This document shows positions 2,512 to 25,003 of a stretch of DNA of 64,000 nucleotides, piece after piece. This stretch comes from Escherichia coli (GTDB taxonomy: Bacteria; Pseudomonadota; Gammaproteobacteria; Enterobacterales; Enterobacteriaceae). The notes under the pieces were generated by a model. That model saw nothing but the letters and a program-made list of their open reading frames with translations. It was not told the origin of the DNA and searched no databases. Numbering within the stretch: position 1 is the first letter of the stretch; each line of letters starts with the position of its first letter. The stretch is from NCBI RefSeq assembly GCF_013122565.1, contig NZ_CP053258.1; one strand, given 5' to 3'. Position numbers and translations under genes: made by a program.

Positions 2512-2877
<366 letters not shown>

Positions 2878-2893
2878 TTCTTGCGAGTTTCAG

Positions 2894-3067
2894 AAAAGGG
2901 GGCCTGAGTGGCCCCTTTTTTCAAGCTGACGGCAGCAATTAACTGGAAACTAATGTATTGTTGCTATGAATGATCTTCCGTTGCAGAGGTTCGCGCGGCT
3001 AATGAGAGGCTTTACCCACATAGAGCTGGGTTAGGGTTGTCATTAGTCGCGAGGATGCGCAGAAGAT
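2894..3067 (-). ncRNA. sraG: Possible SraG (PsrO) sRNA antisense to the pnp leader; position inferred from the K-12 map, not from a sequence match
   Basis: In K-12 SraG lies between rpsO and pnp on the strand opposite pnp; coordinates are transferred by offset from the pnp start and are approximate. Confidence 0.3.
2895..2922 (+). terminator. rpsO rho-independent terminator
   Basis: gggggcctgagtggcccc hairpin followed by tttttt immediately after the rpsO stop. Confidence 0.7.
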
Positions 3068-3123
3068 CGGGTATTAACACCAGTGCCGTAAGGTACTGTC
3101 TAAGAAAGAGAAAGGATATTACA

Positions 3124-5259
3124 TTGCTTAATCCGATCGTTCGTAAATTCCAGTACGGCCAACACACCGTGACTCTGGAAACCGGCATGATGGCTCGTCA
3201 GGCTACTGCCGCTGTTATGGTTAGCATGGATGACACCGCGGTATTTGTTACCGTTGTTGGCCAGAAAAAAGCCAAACCAGGTCAGGACTTCTTCCCACTG
3301 ACCGTTAACTATCAGGAGCGTACCTACGCTGCTGGTCGTATCCCGGGTAGCTTCTTCCGTCGTGAAGGCCGCCCAAGCGAAGGCGAAACCCTGATCGCGC
3401 GTCTGATTGACCGCCCGATTCGCCCGCTGTTCCCGGAAGGCTTCGTCAACGAAGTTCAGGTTATCGCCACCGTGGTTTCTGTTAACCCGCAAGTTAACCC
3501 GGATATCGTCGCGATGATTGGTGCTTCCGCAGCACTGTCTCTGTCTGGTATTCCGTTCAATGGTCCGATTGGTGCTGCCCGCGTAGGTTACATCAATGAC
3601 CAGTACGTACTGAACCCGACTCAGGACGAGCTGAAAGAGAGCAAACTGGATCTGGTTGTTGCCGGTACTGAAGCCGCTGTACTGATGGTTGAATCTGAAG
3701 CTGAACTGCTGAGCGAAGACCAGATGCTGGGCGCAGTAGTGTTCGGTCATGAACAACAGCAGGTTGTTATTCAGAACATCAATGAACTGGTGAAAGAAGC
3801 CGGTAAACCGCGTTGGGACTGGCAGCCGGAGCCGGTAAACGAAGCGCTGAACGCGCGCGTTGCTGCACTGGCTGAAGCTCGTCTGAGCGATGCTTACCGC
3901 ATCACCGACAAACAAGAGCGTTATGCGCAGGTTGATGTCATCAAATCTGAAACCATCGCGACGCTGCTTGCTGAAGACGAAACCCTGGACGAAAACGAAC
4001 TGGGTGAAATTCTGCACGCTATCGAGAAAAACGTTGTTCGTAGCCGCGTACTGGCAGGCGAACCGCGTATCGACGGTCGTGAAAAAGATATGATCCGTGG
4101 TCTGGATGTGCGTACTGGTGTGCTGCCGCGTACTCACGGTTCTGCGCTGTTCACCCGTGGTGAAACGCAGGCGCTGGTTACCGCAACGCTGGGTACTGCT
4201 CGTGACGCGCAGGTTCTTGATGAACTGATGGGCGAACGTACCGATACCTTCCTGTTCCACTACAACTTCCCTCCGTACTCCGTAGGCGAAACCGGCATGG
4301 TCGGTTCTCCGAAGCGTCGTGAAATTGGTCACGGTCGTCTGGCGAAGCGCGGCGTGCTGGCAGTCATGCCGGATATGGACAAATTCCCGTACACCGTACG
4401 TGTTGTGTCTGAAATCACTGAATCCAACGGTTCCTCTTCTATGGCTTCCGTGTGCGGTGCGTCTCTGGCGCTGATGGACGCAGGTGTGCCAATCAAAGCT
4501 GCCGTTGCGGGTATCGCAATGGGTCTGGTGAAAGAAGGCGACAACTACGTTGTACTGTCTGACATTTTGGGCGACGAAGATCACCTGGGCGATATGGACT
4601 TCAAAGTTGCAGGTTCCCGCGACGGTATCTCTGCACTGCAGATGGATATCAAAATTGAAGGTATCACCAAAGAGATCATGCAGGTTGCACTGAACCAGGC
4701 TAAAGGTGCGCGTCTGCACATCCTGGGTGTAATGGAACAGGCGATCAACGCGCCGCGTGGCGATATCTCTGAGTTCGCACCGCGTATCCATACCATCAAG
4801 ATCAACCCGGACAAGATCAAAGATGTTATCGGTAAAGGCGGCTCTGTTATCCGTGCCCTGACCGAAGAAACCGGCACCACCATCGAAATCGAAGATGACG
4901 GTACTGTGAAGATCGCAGCGACCGACGGCGAGAAGGCGAAAAACGCTATTCGTCGTATCGAAGAGATCACTGCAGAAATTGAAGTGGGCCGCGTCTACAC
5001 TGGTAAAGTGACCCGTATCGTTGACTTTGGCGCATTTGTTGCCATCGGCGGCGGTAAAGAAGGTCTGGTACACATCTCTCAAATCGCTGACAAACGCGTT
5101 GAGAAAGTGACCGATTACCTGCAGATGGGTCAGGAAGTACCGGTGAAAGTTCTGGAAGTTGATCGCCAGGGCCGTATCCGTCTGAGCATTAAAGAAGCGA
5201 CTGAGCAGTCTCAACCTGCTGCAGCACCGGAAGCTCCGGCTGCTGAACAGGGCGAGTAA
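3124..5259 (+). CDS. pnp: Polynucleotide phosphorylase (711 aa), UUG start
   Basis: TTG at 3124 followed by [32 protein letters not shown]…; KH/S1 C-terminus; the track ORF 3037..5259 is an upstream extension. Confidence 0.95.
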
Positions 5260-9836: not shown

Positions 9837-10844
9837 CTATCCCAACAACTCTTCCTTAACATCCATCGCCAGCTCAAACGAATGCAGGCGCGCCTGGTGG
9901 TCGAAAATCTGCCCGTTAACCATAATTTCATCGGCGTCGGTTTCGCGCAGGATCGACTGCAAACCATGACGCACTTTCGCTTTATCGCCCACCAGCGACA
10001 TGCTCAGCGCCTGCTGCACGCCATACTGCTCAGACGGTGACCAGAACTGATCCATATTTTGAATCGGCGGCGGCAGTTGCCCGGTTTCGCCACGGCGTAA
10101 CTTCACAAAGGCTTGCTGCATTGAGGTAAACAGAAATTCAGCGTCGCGGTTGCTGTCGGCGGCGATAATATTGATGCACACCATCGCGTATGGTTTCTCC
10201 AGCCGAGCCGACGGTTTGAAGTTGCTGCGATAAAGATGCAGCGCCTGGAACAACATATCCGGCGCGAAGTGTGAGGCAAACGCAAACGGCAGACCAAGCT
10301 GCCCCGCCAGTTGCGCGCTGTAAAGGCTGGAGCCTAACAACCACACGGGGATTTTCTCGCCATAGCCCGGCACTGGGCGCACATGCGGATTGGGATCGCG
10401 GGCGTCAAACCAGTCCACCAGCTCCGCGACATCGCGGGGGAAATTATCAATATCGCCGCTCATATGACGACGCAGCGCCATCATGGTTCGCTGATCGCTA
10501 CCCGGTGCACGACCCAGCCCCAAATCGATTCGCCCCGGATAGAGCGTATTGAGTGTGCCGAACTGTTCGGCAATCACCAACGGTGAGTGGTTAGGCAACA
10601 TCACGCCGCCGGACCCAAGATGCAGCGTGGTGGTATTCGCCGCCAGATAGCCAATTAACACAGACGTTGCAGCACTGGCAATGCCGGTCATATTGTGGTG
10701 TTCCGCCAGCCAGTAGCGATGATAGCCGCGCTTTTCAGCCAGACGGGCGAGATCGAGAGAGTGGGAGAATGCTTCTCGTGCTGAAGAACCTTCGGGGATG
10801 GGGGCCAGATCGAGTAGCGAAAACGCAATGGTTTTATCAGTCAT
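9837..10844 (-). CDS. yhbW: Luciferase-like monooxygenase family protein YhbW (335 aa)
   Basis: Track ORF; synteny adjacent to mtr; translation [51 protein letters not shown]…. Confidence 0.9.
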
Positions 10845-20948: not shown

Positions 20949-21812
20949 ATGAAACAACACCAATCGGCGGATAATTCTCAGGGCCAGCTTTACATCGTAC
21001 CAACACCAATCGGCAATCTGGCGGATATCACCCAGCGTGCGTTAGAGGTATTACAGGCCGTTGATCTGATTGCCGCCGAGGATACTCGTCACACCGGTTT
21101 ATTGCTGCAACATTTTGGGATTAATGCCCGGTTGTTTGCACTGCACGACCATAACGAACAACAAAAAGCCGAAACGCTGCTGGCGAAGCTGCAAGAGGGG
21201 CAAAACATTGCGCTGGTTTCCGATGCCGGAACGCCGCTAATTAACGATCCTGGCTACCATCTGGTGCGTACCTGCCGTGAAGCGGGGATTCGCGTGGTGC
21301 CGCTACCCGGGCCGTGTGCTGCTATCACTGCGTTAAGCGCCGCAGGTTTACCCTCTGACCGTTTCTGTTACGAAGGCTTTTTACCTGCCAAATCAAAAGG
21401 CCGCCGTGATGCGCTAAAAGCCATTGAAGCGGAGCCGCGCACGCTGATTTTTTATGAATCTACCCACCGTCTGTTAGATAGCCTGGAAGATATCGTTGCG
21501 GTATTAGGCGAATCCCGCTACGTAGTTCTGGCGCGTGAGCTCACCAAAACCTGGGAAACCATTCACGGCGCGCCTGTTGGCGAGCTGCTGGCGTGGGTCA
21601 AAGAAGATGAAAACCGTCGCAAAGGCGAAATGGTGCTGATTGTCGAAGGCCATAAAGCGCAGGAAGATGACCTGCCTGCTGATGCCCTGCGCACGCTGGC
21701 GCTGCTACAGGCAGAACTGCCGCTGAAAAAAGCGGCGGCGCTAGCCGCAGAAATTCACGGCGTGAAGAAAAATGCGCTGTATAAGTATGCGTTGGAGCTG
21801 CAGGGAGAGTGA
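20949..21812 (+). CDS. rsmI: 16S rRNA 2'-O-ribose C1402 methyltransferase RsmI (287 aa)
   Basis: Track ORF; translation [50 protein letters not shown]…. Confidence 0.92.
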
Positions 21813-21923
21813 TATCTCTCCGTGGCCCCGTTTGAAGAACCCAGGGGCCGCCTGCTAAACAATTAGTCTTTTTAGTGCATACCGCGCCGTAAATCCTCGC
21901 TCCGTGCGGACTGACCTCTTAAA

Positions 21924-22880
21924 TCAGGGGGCTAGTTGCGTGGTATAGTTGGCAGCGACCCAACGATAACCCTTGCTGTCGCTTTTAACATGCCCCAGGC
22001 CTGGGAATGAGATATGGGCTGCTGCCACCCAGTAACCACCCTGAGCCGCATGTTTTAATACTCGCTCACGGGTTTTTACCGCTTGCTGTTGATCCACATC
22101 GAAATGTATCGCCACGTGAGGATCCGGCATCTGCACTGCTTTGGCATGAATAATATCGCCCCACAACACTAGCGTCTGGCCTTCACTCTCCACTGTGTAC
22201 ATCACGCTACCAGGAGTATGGCCGGCCGTTGAGGTGGCTGCAATGCCTGCAATTACCGTTGCCGGTGCGATAAAGGTCTTCAGCTGACCTGCGTTGATCA
22301 CTGGGCGGATGGTCTGCTCCGATTCGACAAAGGTGTGCTTCTGACTATCTTCTACTTGCGAGGCATTCGCCGGATTAAGCCAGAAATCCGCATCTTTCTG
22401 CTCAACGAATACCTGGGCGTTAGGGAAAGCTGGTTTGCCCTGACGGGAGATGCCACCAGAGTGGTCGGCATGAATATGCGTCAGCAGCACGGCATCAATG
22501 GTTTCAGCCGGATAGCCAGCAGCTGCCAGGTTTTCAAGCAATTGGCCTCCATTGTTGCCAAACAGATCGCCCGCACCGGCATCAACCAACACGCGCTGCT
22601 GGCCATTATCAATAACAAATGCATTGATTGAAGTCTCCGTATGGGGTGTCAGTGAATCCTTTGCCAGTTGTTGGCGCAGTTTATCGGCAGGAATGTGGGT
22701 GAGTAATTTATCTAGCGGAATTGTCACCGTGCCGTCGGAGACAGCGGTAATACGTAGTTTGCCCAATATCATGCGGTAATAGCCCGGTGCTTGTGTATCA
22801 GGAGGGGGCACAGGTATAGGCGTTGCTAACGCATTTACGGAGAGTACCAGTGAGGTTACCAGAGTCAGCAAAAGTTTCAT
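21924..22880 (-). CDS. Secreted MBL-fold metallo-hydrolase (318 aa) with N-terminal signal peptide; substrate unknown
   Basis: Signal peptide MKLLLTLVTSLVLSVNALA; metal-binding HxHxDH motif (LLTHIHADHSGG) and downstream His residues; occupies the position of yraHIJK in K-12. Confidence 0.7.
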   Translation of the reverse strand: MKLLLTLVTSLVLSVNALATPIPVPPPDTQAPGYYRMILGKLRITAVSDGTVTIPLDKLLTHIPADKLRQQLAKDSLTPHTETSINAFVIDNGQQRVLVDAGAGDLFGNNGGQLLENLAAAGYPAETIDAVLLTHIHADHSGGISRQGKPAFPNAQVFVEQKDADFWLNPANASQVEDSQKHTFVESEQTIRPVINAGQLKTFIAPATVIAGIAATSTAGHTPGSVMYTVESEGQTLVLWGDIIHAKAVQMPDPHVAIHFDVDQQQAVKTRERVLKHAAQGGYWVAAAHISFPGLGHVKSDSKGYRWVAANYTTQLAP

Positions 22881-22961
22881 TCTATCCTCGATAAGTTCTG
22901 TTATTACAGTACGGGCACCAGTATCCTTTTGCGAATAACATCATTCAAATTGATTAATATA

Positions 22962-23906
22962 ATGAACTCTATCAGAGAAAATGATTTAAACCGGGTCGAC
23001 CTCAACCTGCTAATCGTGCTCCTGGTGCTACATCGAGAGGGGAGCGTTTCACGTGCAGCCAGCAAGTTACACTTGGGGCAGCCAGCAGTTAGTGGCGCGC
23101 TGGCACGGCTGAGAGAAATGTTTAACGACCCGTTATTTGTGCGCACGGCAAAGGGGATGGCACCGACACCACGTGCACAAGCTCTGGTTACGGCACTACT
23201 GCCGGTGATGGATCAAATGCAGCAGGTGATTTTTCAAAGGCCGGTTTTTACCCCAGAACAGGATCAGCATACGTTTCGCCTGGGGATGAGTGACTGGGTC
23301 GAACGCTGGCTGATGCCTGGAATGATGGCAGATATAGCCCAAATGGCACCCGGGATTCGCTTACAAGTCACGGCATCCGATCCTTTCCAGGATGGCGAAA
23401 AAGTGCAACAGGATAAGGTGGACGTAGCAATCTCCGTCGTGGAGCAGGTGCCCACCGGAGTGGAACGAGAAGTGATCACTCAAATGGGGTTTTGCACGAT
23501 GTGGCATCCGCTCCAGTTATCCCTCACTTCACCGTTAAGCCTTGATGTATATACTGAAACCGATCATCTTTTGGTCTCTTATCGCGGTGCCAGCAGTAGC
23601 TCTATCGATCTGATTTTGGCTGACTGCGGGCGTAAAAGGGAAGTGCGTTACGTCACGCCAAATTTCTCATCGTTACCGTTGATGTTGAGACAGATACCGG
23701 CTTTAGCGACCGTACCGCAGGGGCTGGCAGTAGGCTGGGTAGCCGATTATGGGTTGCAATTTGCCGATGTCCCACTCGAGGTTCCTGCTTTTACGCTCTC
23801 TCTACTCTGGAATAAGCGGCGTAATAATGATGAGGCGCTGCGCTGGTTACTGGAGAAATTACGCACACGAATGCAGGGCTGGGAGATGTTTTCAGAATGC
23901 GTTTGA
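22962..23906 (+). CDS. LysR-family transcriptional regulator, divergent from the MBL hydrolase gene
   Basis: N-terminal HTH (VDLNLLIVLLVLHREGSVSRAASKLHLGQPAVSGALARLRE) plus a LysR substrate-binding domain; ATG at 22962 within track ORF 22929..23906. Confidence 0.75.
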   Translation: MNSIRENDLNRVDLNLLIVLLVLHREGSVSRAASKLHLGQPAVSGALARLREMFNDPLFVRTAKGMAPTPRAQALVTALLPVMDQMQQVIFQRPVFTPEQDQHTFRLGMSDWVERWLMPGMMADIAQMAPGIRLQVTASDPFQDGEKVQQDKVDVAISVVEQVPTGVEREVITQMGFCTMWHPLQLSLTSPLSLDVYTETDHLLVSYRGASSSSIDLILADCGRKREVRYVTPNFSSLPLMLRQIPALATVPQGLAVGWVADYGLQFADVPLEVPAFTLSLLWNKRRNNDEALRWLLEKLRTRMQGWEMFSECV

Positions 23907-24235
23907 AAACGTAAAAATGTGAACAGGAAATAAGGGCTTGCTAAATTAAATAACTCCTGTCAGATAATTTAGCGTATAGGTGCAATCGTGCCCTAATGGC
24001 CGTTAAACATGTCTTGCAGCTAATTGGGTTAATAAGTATTTGAATCGCTTTTCAGGATTAGTGAGTCGTATGAGGGAGCTGTGCTCTGTCACCATGTACC
24101 TGATATTATGTATTTTTTGTCAACCTTTAGGTTTACATTGTGATGGAATAATAGCGGGGGACGATCAAACTGAACCGTAATGAAGTGCTCAAAAGACATG
24201 AGCACTTTTCTTATTTTTCCGGGCTAAGAGGGATG

Positions 24236-25003
24236 TTAATGACGACAAATCTCATCAATCATGCATGTGAAATGGTTATGCAGCCATAAAAATGAAGCCG
24301 GGATAGCGGTAGAGACTTTAGCCGTGAGAAAACGTTCTGTCGCATCCTGCTTTCCTTCGCCAGTCACCAGTAACAAAACTTCGCGGGCATTGAGAATATC
24401 TTTCAGGCCTAAGGTGATCCCACGTGTCACGGGGCGACCCGCGGTTTTTAACATCTCATGTTGCTGTGTTCTGGCATCAAGATGACTGATATGGCAGGCC
24501 GGTTGCAGGCTTTCTCCCGGTTCGTTCAGCCCAAGGTGACCGTTTTTCCCCAATCCGAGAACGCATAAATCCAGACCGCCTTTGCGCGCAATCAGGTTCG
24601 TTACCCGTTCGCACTCTGTCTCATTTATCTCTTCGGAGCGAAAGCTGATGAGCTGGTCTTCACGTAGCCCCAGCGGCTGCACGATATGCTGTTGCAGGAA
24701 AGTTTCGCAGGTGCCAGGCATCGTTAATGGCAGATCCACCCATTCGTCGAGCTTCACGAAGGTGAGCTGGCTGACATCAACCTGCTGCTGGTGGATTTTT
24801 TCTACCAGATAATGATACGTCAGTAATGGCGTCGCTCCGGTCGCCAGGCAAATCACGGCATCCGATTTACTACGGATCACGGCCAATAAATATTCGCTGG
24901 CACGTTCACTTAACGCCGTATAGTTTTCAACTTGCTGAAGGGTTTGCACAGGATGAAATTCCTTAAGTAAAGAGGCACCGCCAGAAGCAGTGCCTCGTTC
25001 CAT
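24236..25003 (-). CDS. agaI: Galactosamine-6-phosphate deaminase/isomerase AgaI
   Basis: Track ORF, NagB-like sequence; last gene of the agaS-kbaY-agaBCDI operon. Confidence 0.85.
   Translation of the reverse strand: MERGTASGGASLLKEFHPVQTLQQVENYTALSERASEYLLAVIRSKSDAVICLATGATPLLTYHYLVEKIHQQQVDVSQLTFVKLDEWVDLPLTMPGTCETFLQQHIVQPLGLREDQLISFRSEEINETECERVTNLIARKGGLDLCVLGLGKNGHLGLNEPGESLQPACHISHLDARTQQHEMLKTAGRPVTRGITLGLKDILNAREVLLLVTGEGKQDATERFLTAKVSTAIPASFLWLHNHFTCMIDEICRH

Follow-up and report, generated by a model that had tools for sequence, protein, structure and literature searches.

A predicted exported MBL-fold lactonase and its divergent LysR regulator form a two-gene cassette at the multi-allelic rsmI-agaI junction of Escherichia coli

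We analysed a 64,000-nucleotide stretch of DNA from Escherichia coli (NCBI RefSeq assembly GCF_013122565.1, contig NZ_CP053258.1; hereafter the window), in which the interval between rsmI and agaI holds a divergent pair of genes, one for a protein of the metallo-β-lactamase (MBL) fold and the other for a LysR-type transcriptional regulator (LTTR). By sequence comparison and in its predicted structure, the enzyme is a member of the clade of MBL-fold lactonases that comprises methyl parathion hydrolase (MPH), the dihydrocoumarin hydrolases (DHCHs), AidC and LrsL, and the nearest characterised enzymes, as measured by similarity, are the dihydrocoumarin hydrolases. Taking all the evidence together, we consider it probable that the pair encodes an exported di-metal lactonase and its cognate regulator, and that it is a mobile two-gene module which replaced the core of a toxin-antitoxin locus at the rsmI-agaI site.

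An earlier note on this DNA had reported that the interval holds nothing but the divergent MBL-fold and LysR genes, and that K-12 has the fimbrial genes yraHIJK in that place. Both points stand: the list of open reading frames (ORFs) gives no further ORF with homologues in the rsmI-agaI interval of the window, and in MG1655 yraHIJK does sit between agaI and rsmI. The enzyme has 1965 homologues at E ≤ 1e-20, and pairwise dN/dS values indicate purifying selection, the enzyme gene standing at 0.08-0.16 and the regulator gene at 0.08 against Erwinia aphidicola. From these observations, we conclude that both genes are genuine and that neither is a chance ORF.

The Pfam model Lactamase_B (PF00753) matches the enzyme with an E value of 9e-18, which places it in the MBL-fold superfamily. 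Searching the PDB with phmmer, we observed that the best match is AncDHCH1/Anc1-MPH (5hif/6c2c; E 1e-89, 48% identity), followed by MPH (1p9e; 6e-80, 44% identity), OPHC2/PoOPH (about 1e-72, with about 40% identity to PoOPH), AbOPH (3e-61), LrsL (2e-47) and AidC (1e-32), whereas B3 β-lactamases reach about 1e-5 only. Expressed as bit scores, the matches to DHCH/MPH/OPHC2 lie at 304-247, that to LrsL at 166 and that to AidC at 117. The similarity to the solved members of the clade, with E values from 1e-89 to 1e-32, spans residues ~23-313. With 34 homologues as input, AlphaFold2 gave a model whose mean predicted local distance difference test score (pLDDT) is 91.3, and a Foldseek search of the PDB with this model matches clade members with TM scores of 0.83-0.93 and a probability of 1.00 (0.86-0.93 for 5hif, 1p9e, 4o98 and 7y7u). 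The 50 best Foldseek neighbours are, all 50, lactonases or lactonase-derived organophosphate hydrolases, and no β-lactamase is found among them.

The best NCBIfam model is that of the AidB family of N-acyl-homoserine lactone (AHL) lactonases (NF047979; 202.3 bits, E 9e-60), whose equivalog cut-off of 360 is not reached. The B3 model NF033105 gives 44.1 bits against a cut-off of 240, and the AiiA-type model NF045699 gives 34.2 bits against a cut-off of 375, with 16-18% identity to AiiA structures. As controls, AncDHCH1 and MPH score 210.4 and 177.5 bits on the AidB model, and AncDHCH1 scores 49 bits on the B3 model. Given that AncDHCH1 scores nearly the same as our enzyme on both models, the matches of the enzyme reflect only similarity at the level of the clade and of the superfamily. 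We therefore reject membership of the AidB equivalog, its score being equalled by the control, and we also reject an AiiA-type AHL lactonase, for which the cut-off is missed and a histidine stands at the position of Tyr194. The earlier note had held that the sequence cannot separate a class B3-like β-lactamase from a lactonase or another hydrolase; here we come to a different view, since the homology and hidden Markov model classification that it proposed, when run, places the enzyme in the lactonase clade by phmmer, alignment and Foldseek and leaves it far below the B3 cut-off. In all carrier genomes the PGAP label is 'MBL fold metallo-hydrolase' only.

The same note had read an HxHxDH motif, HIHADH, in the protein, and we find it as H135-I-H-A-D-H140. 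Alignment of the enzyme with its relatives, the other check proposed there, yields the full set of metal ligands, seven of seven, including the additional histidines and the bridging Asp242: H135, H137, D139, H140, H221, D242 and H289 align (MAFFT) to MPH H147, H149, D151, H152, H234, D255 and H302, respectively. All seven are invariant in 41 homologues and in the homologue alignment used for the structure model, and a seven-ligand di-metal motif has also been described for LrsL (PMC9441902). Three residues after the bridging aspartate, His245 takes the position of Tyr194 in AiiA, of His260 in LrsL/AidC/MomL and of the h258L change in MPH evolution; a histidine instead of the AiiA-type tyrosine at this position is a hallmark of AidC, MomL and LrsL (PMC9441902; PMC11423328). 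Yang et al. showed that l72R, a Ser193 insertion, h258L, i271T and f273L are both required and enough for the passage from a dihydrocoumarin-hydrolase ancestor to MPH, that enzymes in the ancestral state, extant and reconstructed DHCHs alike, have a kcat/KM of at least 1e6 for dihydrocoumarin and of less than 1e2 for organophosphates, and that MPH proper forms a small clade whose sequences are >90% identical (bioRxiv 10.1101/504811). At these five MPH-defining positions our enzyme has the ancestral state in five of five (L59, no insertion, H245, I258, F260) and the derived state in none, and the same ancestral states occur in 41/41 homologues.

Because none of the five MPH-defining changes is present, we expect a lactonase in which phosphotriesterase activity is present in traces at most. 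With dihydrocoumarin hydrolases as its nearest characterised relatives, it should act strongly on dihydrocoumarin-type aryl- or delta-lactones, hydrolyse organophosphates to a negligible extent only and lack β-lactamase activity; activity on AHLs is possible. The mature periplasmic enzyme is predicted to bind two divalent metals, one at H135/H137/H221 and the other at D139/H140/H289, with D242 bridging. Lactone hydrolysis, which we carry over from the relatives, would proceed by opening of the ring by a metal-activated hydroxide, as in MPH, LrsL and AidC, and His245 may play the hydrogen-bonding role of AiiA Tyr194.

A signal peptide had been claimed for the enzyme, and a Sec-type leader, MKLLLTLVTSLVLSVNALA, followed by TP, can indeed be read at its N-terminus; the leader contains neither a twin-arginine nor a lipobox motif. 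A comparable leader (short positive N-terminus, hydrophobic stretch, AxA-type site), followed by the conserved mature start QAPGYYRM, is present in 36/36 enterobacterial orthologues. The AlphaFold2 pLDDT is <50 for residues 1-19, where the model is disordered, and homology to the mature crystallised MPH and AncDHCH1 begins at residue ~23. These features point to Sec-dependent export to the periplasm, in which the precursor would probably be cut after Ala19.

The product of the divergent gene contains the Pfam domains HTH_1 (residues 14-73, E 3.5e-17) and LysR_substrate (residues 99-304, E 9.9e-21). No NCBIfam equivalog is specific for it, the best, BsrA, giving 198 bits against a cut-off of 480 and LeuO also lying far below its cut-off; it is an ordinary LTTR that matches no characterised equivalog. 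We place its start at ATG 22962, which is kept in the orthologues and used by the RefSeq homologues, rather than at TTG 22929, as in the range given by the earlier note. In 36/36 enterobacterial loci, drawn from species-representative genomes, and in several Betaproteobacteria, LysR divergently adjoins the enzyme gene, and across loci LysR identity falls in step with enzyme identity. The intergenic region measures 81 bp in the closest orthologues and ~71-112 bp across the 36 enterobacterial loci. When 37 orthologous intergenic regions are aligned, only two elements are conserved, the operator box AATCAATTnGAnTGAT and the sequence GGATACT. In the window the box is a predicted LysR-type operator of the form ATC-N9-GAT / T-N11-A, which overlaps the -35 element of a candidate promoter for the enzyme gene and leaves just 6 bp to the start codon of LysR, a position that suggests autoregulation. 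It is unique in the 64-kb window (chance expectation, 0.04 matches), and a degenerate form of it occurs exactly once, between the genes, in 48/48 fetched loci with the LysR-enzyme pair, Betaproteobacteria included. Judged from these sequences, the LysR protein would be the cognate partner of the lactonase. It may bind the ATC-N9-GAT box and so couple both enzyme expression and its own autoregulation to a small-molecule co-inducer, probably a lactone or its ring-opened product.

The degenerate box also occurs once in a locus of Cupriavidus necator A5-1 (L040, 5854-5869) that has a lactonase homologue and, instead of LysR, a gene for a Bug/TctC-type receptor upstream. This occurrence lies inside coding sequence, is probably a chance match of the degenerate pattern, and was rejected as a real operator.

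No larger conserved operon with transporter or catabolic genes was found: the two genes are all that 41 loci have in common, and the next most shared neighbour is present in 12/41. With no other conserved neighbour gene, the pair is best regarded as a self-contained module. It is spread across the Enterobacterales, with hosts that include Pectobacterium, Serratia, Pantoea, Erwinia, Yersinia, Enterobacter, Citrobacter and Xenorhabdus; no other Escherichia species appears among the best 80 loci. The nearest species, Erwinia aphidicola, has 80.6% DNA identity, confined to 21923-23881, and at this identity and a dS of ~0.9 it is not the direct donor. Metagenomic relatives at 87-89% lie in an Erwinia-like context. 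Homologues with 77-82% protein identity are plasmid-borne in Erwinia rhapontici, in E. persicina and, on the megaplasmid, in Pantoea agglomerans, and plasmids of this kind offer a plausible transfer route. We therefore picture 21923-23881 as the functional core of what would be a self-contained, horizontally mobile two-gene module, whose source was likely a plant-associated member of the Enterobacterales, in which the module is often plasmid-borne.

The rsmI-agaI site was surveyed in 5426 complete E. coli genomes, of which ~210 were not classified. The yraHIJK allele is present in 3523 of the 5426, and 1614 have an empty allele with rsmI and agaI ~49 bp apart. The lactonase-LysR cassette occurs in 63, always on the chromosome and always at this site, and its carriers include O145:H28 Shiga toxin-producing E. 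coli (STEC) and O169:H41 enterotoxigenic E. coli (ETEC). The flanks of the cassette alone were matched in 13, and all seven of those listed carry a RelE/ParE-HTH pair. Between the same flanking genes these contents are mutually exclusive, and the rsmI-agaI junction is a four-allele hotspot. The genome comparison suggested in the earlier note thus shows a multi-allelic site, the junctions of which we mapped against the K-12, empty and toxin-antitoxin alleles. In the comparison with K-12, homology is lost 7 nt short of the rsmI stop codon and returns within the 3' end of agaI. Compared with the empty allele, it reaches exactly both stop codons, so that the insert is 21814-24234 (2421 bp). The toxin-antitoxin allele shares 64 bp at the left end of this insert and 121 bp at its right end. 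These shared flanks contain a truncated antitoxin end (six codons and the stop) and the start of the toxin ORF (29 codons), from which we conclude that the cassette core, 21878-24113, replaced the toxin-antitoxin interior. No signature of a mobile element was found at the ends of the cassette: there are no terminal inverted repeats or target-site duplications at 21814/24234 or 21878/24113 and no integrase or transposase ORF.

In the locus used for this comparison (L003, NZ_OZ197100.1), the ORF for a RelE/ParE-family toxin and the gene for a helix-turn-helix (HTH) antitoxin of HipB/HigA-like type lie at 2543-3315. The toxin ORF as annotated, 148 aa long and with a start that may have been placed too far upstream, has no match among the NCBIfam models. 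In the K-12 yraHIJK allele, rsmI has 286 aa instead of 287 and agaI 251 aa instead of the 255 found in the empty, toxin-antitoxin and lactonase alleles; the differences lie at 21806-21812 and 24236-24278 of the window, against 10476-10480 and 4996-5026 of the K-12 locus (L002). Since both gene ends differ in the yraHIJK allele, the event that created or removed yraHIJK also rewrote both ends. The 3' half of rsmI (21300-21805) is at least 99% identical in only 11/5424 genomes and ~96.6% identical to K-12. For a core gene this is rather divergent, and it suggests that flanking DNA moved with the cassette by recombination. In O145:H28 strain RM12761 (L005, 7107-10131) and related carriers, the cassette is directly followed by a truncated pseudogene for a phosphotransferase system (PTS) IIB component, a gene of the MalY/PatB family and a malX-like gene of the PTS. 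As these genes replace agaI-agaD-agaC-agaB, the neighbouring aga cluster was remodelled in that lineage too.

Other readings of the enzyme have to be weighed against a dihydrocoumarin-type lactonase. It could serve in quorum quenching, as a periplasmic AHL lactonase like AidB, AidC, MomL or LrsL that degrades the AHLs of neighbours. AHLs are produced by many of the organisms that carry the module (Pectobacterium, Serratia, Pantoea, Erwinia, Yersinia), although to our knowledge the hosts E. coli, Enterobacter, Citrobacter and Xenorhabdus make no AHL. The best NCBIfam model is that of AidB, LrsL (34% identity) and AidC lie close to the enzyme in structure, a signal peptide is present as in MomL and LrsL, and His245 and F260 correspond, when counted from the bridging Asp, to the AHL-contacting His260 and Phe275 of LrsL (PMC9441902). 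However, the AidB score is far under the cut-off and no better than that of a dihydrocoumarin hydrolase, the enzyme is nearer in bit score to DHCH/MPH/OPHC2 than to LrsL or AidC, and OPHC2, which belongs to the same clade and hydrolyses dihydrocoumarin, has no detectable AHL activity (PMC3817169). We regard quorum quenching as doubtful, while giving it appreciable weight. A pesticide-degrading organophosphate (methyl parathion) hydrolase is suggested by the 44% identity to MPH and the homology to OPHC2 and PoOPH; against this stand the absence of all five required changes (R72, the Ser193 insertion, L258, T271, L273), the organophosphate kcat/KM below 1e2 of ancestral-state enzymes and the confinement of MPH proper to its group of >90% identical sequences (10.1101/504811). 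MPH proper is rejected on the five positions, and an organophosphate hydrolase in the wider sense is very improbable.

A subclass B3-like β-lactamase conferring β-lactam resistance would share with the enzyme the MBL fold, the periplasmic location and the HxHxDH motif, and there are weak matches to the B3 model and to L1/AIM-1. The B3 site consists of six ligands without a bridging Asp, whereas the enzyme has the seventh, bridging Asp ligand that is typical of lactonases and glyoxalase II. The wide miss of the B3 cut-off, the equally weak score of AncDHCH1, the lack of β-lactamases among the 50 best structural neighbours and the PGAP name, which goes no further than the fold, point the same way; we reject this reading on the cut-off, the bridging Asp and the structural neighbours, and see next to no chance for it. 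As to the history of the site, the earlier note had taken yraHIJK to be replaced by the pair. It is correct that the pair stands where K-12 has yraHIJK, which is the commonest allele and is never found together with the cassette, but a direct replacement in an ancestor carrying yraHIJK is quite improbable: homology to K-12 ends inside the last codons of rsmI and agaI while homology to the empty allele runs to both stops, the 64-bp and 121-bp flanks are shared with the toxin-antitoxin allele and include truncated ends of its genes, and no yra fragment is present in the window.

Several points weigh against the reading that we prefer, that of an exported dihydrocoumarin-type lactonase with its cognate LysR in a module that replaced a toxin-antitoxin core. 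With only 48% identity between the enzyme and its nearest characterised relative, substrate preference cannot be carried over with confidence. The clade contains both OPHC2 and the efficient AHL lactonases LrsL, AidC and AidB, and a preference for aryl-lactones over AHLs, or the reverse, is not decidable from sequence. Export, the promoter, the occupancy of the operator and the co-inducer are all things that we infer, and a generic promoter scan of the window did not list the proposed enzyme promoter. The order of events at the site, with the toxin-antitoxin pair first and the cassette second, rests on truncated gene ends, and the annotated toxin start may be too far upstream. Searches of the literature for the RefSeq accessions and for the locus returned nothing relevant, and found no paper on an enterobacterial orthologue.

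Features of the rsmI-agaI interval, with coordinates in the window
Feature	Position	Strand	Basis or remark
rsmI, left boundary gene, 287 aa	20949..21812	+	ORF
Left flank common to RelE/ParE-HTH allele	21814..21877	.	blastn of window against L003; homology up to 21877
GC-rich hairpin in left flank	21822-21851		fold energy -18.6 kcal/mol
HTH antitoxin remnant, last six codons and stop	21856-21877	-	translation
Cassette-specific spacer 3' of lactonase gene, 46 bp	21878..21923	.	without homologue in any fetched locus
Predicted MBL-fold lactonase gene, 318 aa	21924..22880	-	ORF; stop codon 21924-21926
Metal ligand H289	22014-22016	-	MAFFT alignment
Specificity position F260	22101-22103	-	alignment
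Specificity position I258	22107-22109	-	alignment
His245, bridging Asp +3	22146..22148	-	alignment
Bridging metal ligand D242	22155-22157	-	MAFFT alignment
Metal ligand H221	22218-22220	-	MAFFT alignment
HxHxDH motif (H135, H137, D139, H140)	22461..22478	-	MAFFT alignment
Specificity position L59	22704-22706	-	alignment; Ser193-type insertion absent
Predicted signal peptide, residues 1-19	22824..22880	-	direct reading; AxA signal-peptidase I site
Divergent control region, 81 bp	22881..22961	.	intergenic
Candidate enzyme promoter	-35 TTGAAT 22943-22948; -10 GATACT 22920-22925	-	inferred; 17-bp spacer, Shine-Dalgarno GAGGA
Predicted LysR-type operator AATCAATTTGAATGAT	22940..22955	-	conserved box
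LysR-type regulator gene, 314 aa	22962..23906	+	ORF; Pfam HTH_1 and LysR_substrate
AT-rich cassette-specific spacer 3' of LysR, 207 bp	23907..24113	.	without homologue in fetched loci
Toxin ORF remnant, first 29 codons of annotated ORF	24113-24199	-	MSFEHFITVQFDRPPLLFHHNVNLKVDKK matches L003 toxin ORF start
Right flank common to RelE/ParE-HTH allele	24114..24234	.	blastn against L003
Terminator-like hairpin in right flank	24182-24208		found by scan
agaI, right boundary gene, 255 aa	24236..25003	-	ORF

Neither the 207-bp nor the 46-bp cassette-specific spacer contains a convincing ORF. A 23-nt imperfect inverted repeat (83% complementary) joins 23108-23130, in the part of the LysR gene that encodes the HTH (RLREMFND), with 23998-24020 in the spacer 3' of LysR. 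Translated on the minus strand, the downstream arm gives LQDMFNG; it could stem from a leftover piece of a further LysR gene or be due to chance. Beyond the boundary genes, the neighbours are diaA, yraN, lpoA and rsmI on one side and agaI, agaD, agaC, agaB and kbaY on the other. The ORF sizes in 28143-35722 fit a full-length aga/kba cluster, with agaS, a 377-aa nagA/agaA, two PTS components, kbaZ and agaR, and the annotation of the near-identical strain LHM10-1 gives an intact nagA; K-12 is known to have a deletion in this cluster. Matches above the Rfam gathering threshold are RNase P RNA (50755-51131), the SraG sRNA (2894-3065), the S15 leader (2550-2664) and naRNA4 (966-1036), all four of which are ordinary for this chromosomal region.

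For a gene pair that PGAP calls only 'MBL fold metallo-hydrolase' and 'LysR family regulator', the analysis supplies a name that is specific and can be tested. The enzyme falls in a lactonase clade and its gene is no resistance gene. This is important for resistome screens, in which periplasmic MBL-fold proteins may be flagged. About 1% of complete E. coli genomes have the pair, O145:H28 STEC included, and its presence in some pathogenic lineages suggests a niche trait connected with lactones. The module is common among plant-associated Enterobacterales, where plasmids often carry it. This distribution fits a role in the handling of lactones from plants or microbes, for example coumarin derivatives or AHLs, and the conserved operator together with its regulator is a ready-made system for finding the natural inducer. 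The four alleles of the rsmI-agaI hotspot also correct a K-12-centred view of the locus. We stress that the pair itself will not surprise a specialist; AHL quenching by E. coli is the most interesting possibility. It is unlikely, in our judgement, that some E. coli lineages, among them O145:H28 STEC and O169:H41 ETEC, carry a LysR-inducible periplasmic lactonase that efficiently destroys AHLs. If this were true, E. coli, which makes no AHL but listens through SdiA, could, in the rumen or gut, also silence the signals of its neighbours or modulate what its own SdiA receives.

Among known systems, AncDHCH1 (5hif/6c2c) is the best match in both sequence and structure (TM 0.86/0.92), with the same seven ligands and five specificity residues and with matching length and domain architecture. 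The dihydrocoumarin hydrolases of the MPH lineage also include JsDHCH from Janthinobacterium; our enzyme differs from them in that the identity to AncDHCH1 is only 48% and in that the enterobacterial clade is always paired with LysR and has a Sec-type leader. It shares with MPH of Pseudomonas sp. WBC-3 (1p9e) and with OPHC2/PoOPH (4le6, 4o98) the fold, a di-metal site bridged by an Asp and synthesis as a precursor for export, but has none of the changes that define MPH. LrsL (7y7u), AidC (4zo2), MomL and AidB belong to the same structural clade (TM 0.83-0.92) and have His at Asp+3, F260 of the enzyme corresponds to F275 of LrsL, and MomL and LrsL also have a signal peptide; the identity to this group is, however, only 25-34%, and the AidB score is 202 against 360. 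The B3 β-lactamases L1, AIM-1 and FEZ-1 have the superfamily, the HxHxDH motif and the periplasmic location in common with the enzyme, which differs by its extra bridging Asp and resembles them at the superfamily level only (44 bits; E about 1e-5). As a regulatory arrangement, the locus resembles a classical LTTR divergent pair in its divergent orientation, its short 81-bp intergenic region and its ATC-N9-GAT box, which lies over the -35 element of the target and in the leader of the regulator, while the regulator, unlike the classical ones, matches no characterised equivalog, BsrA and LeuO being far under their cut-offs.

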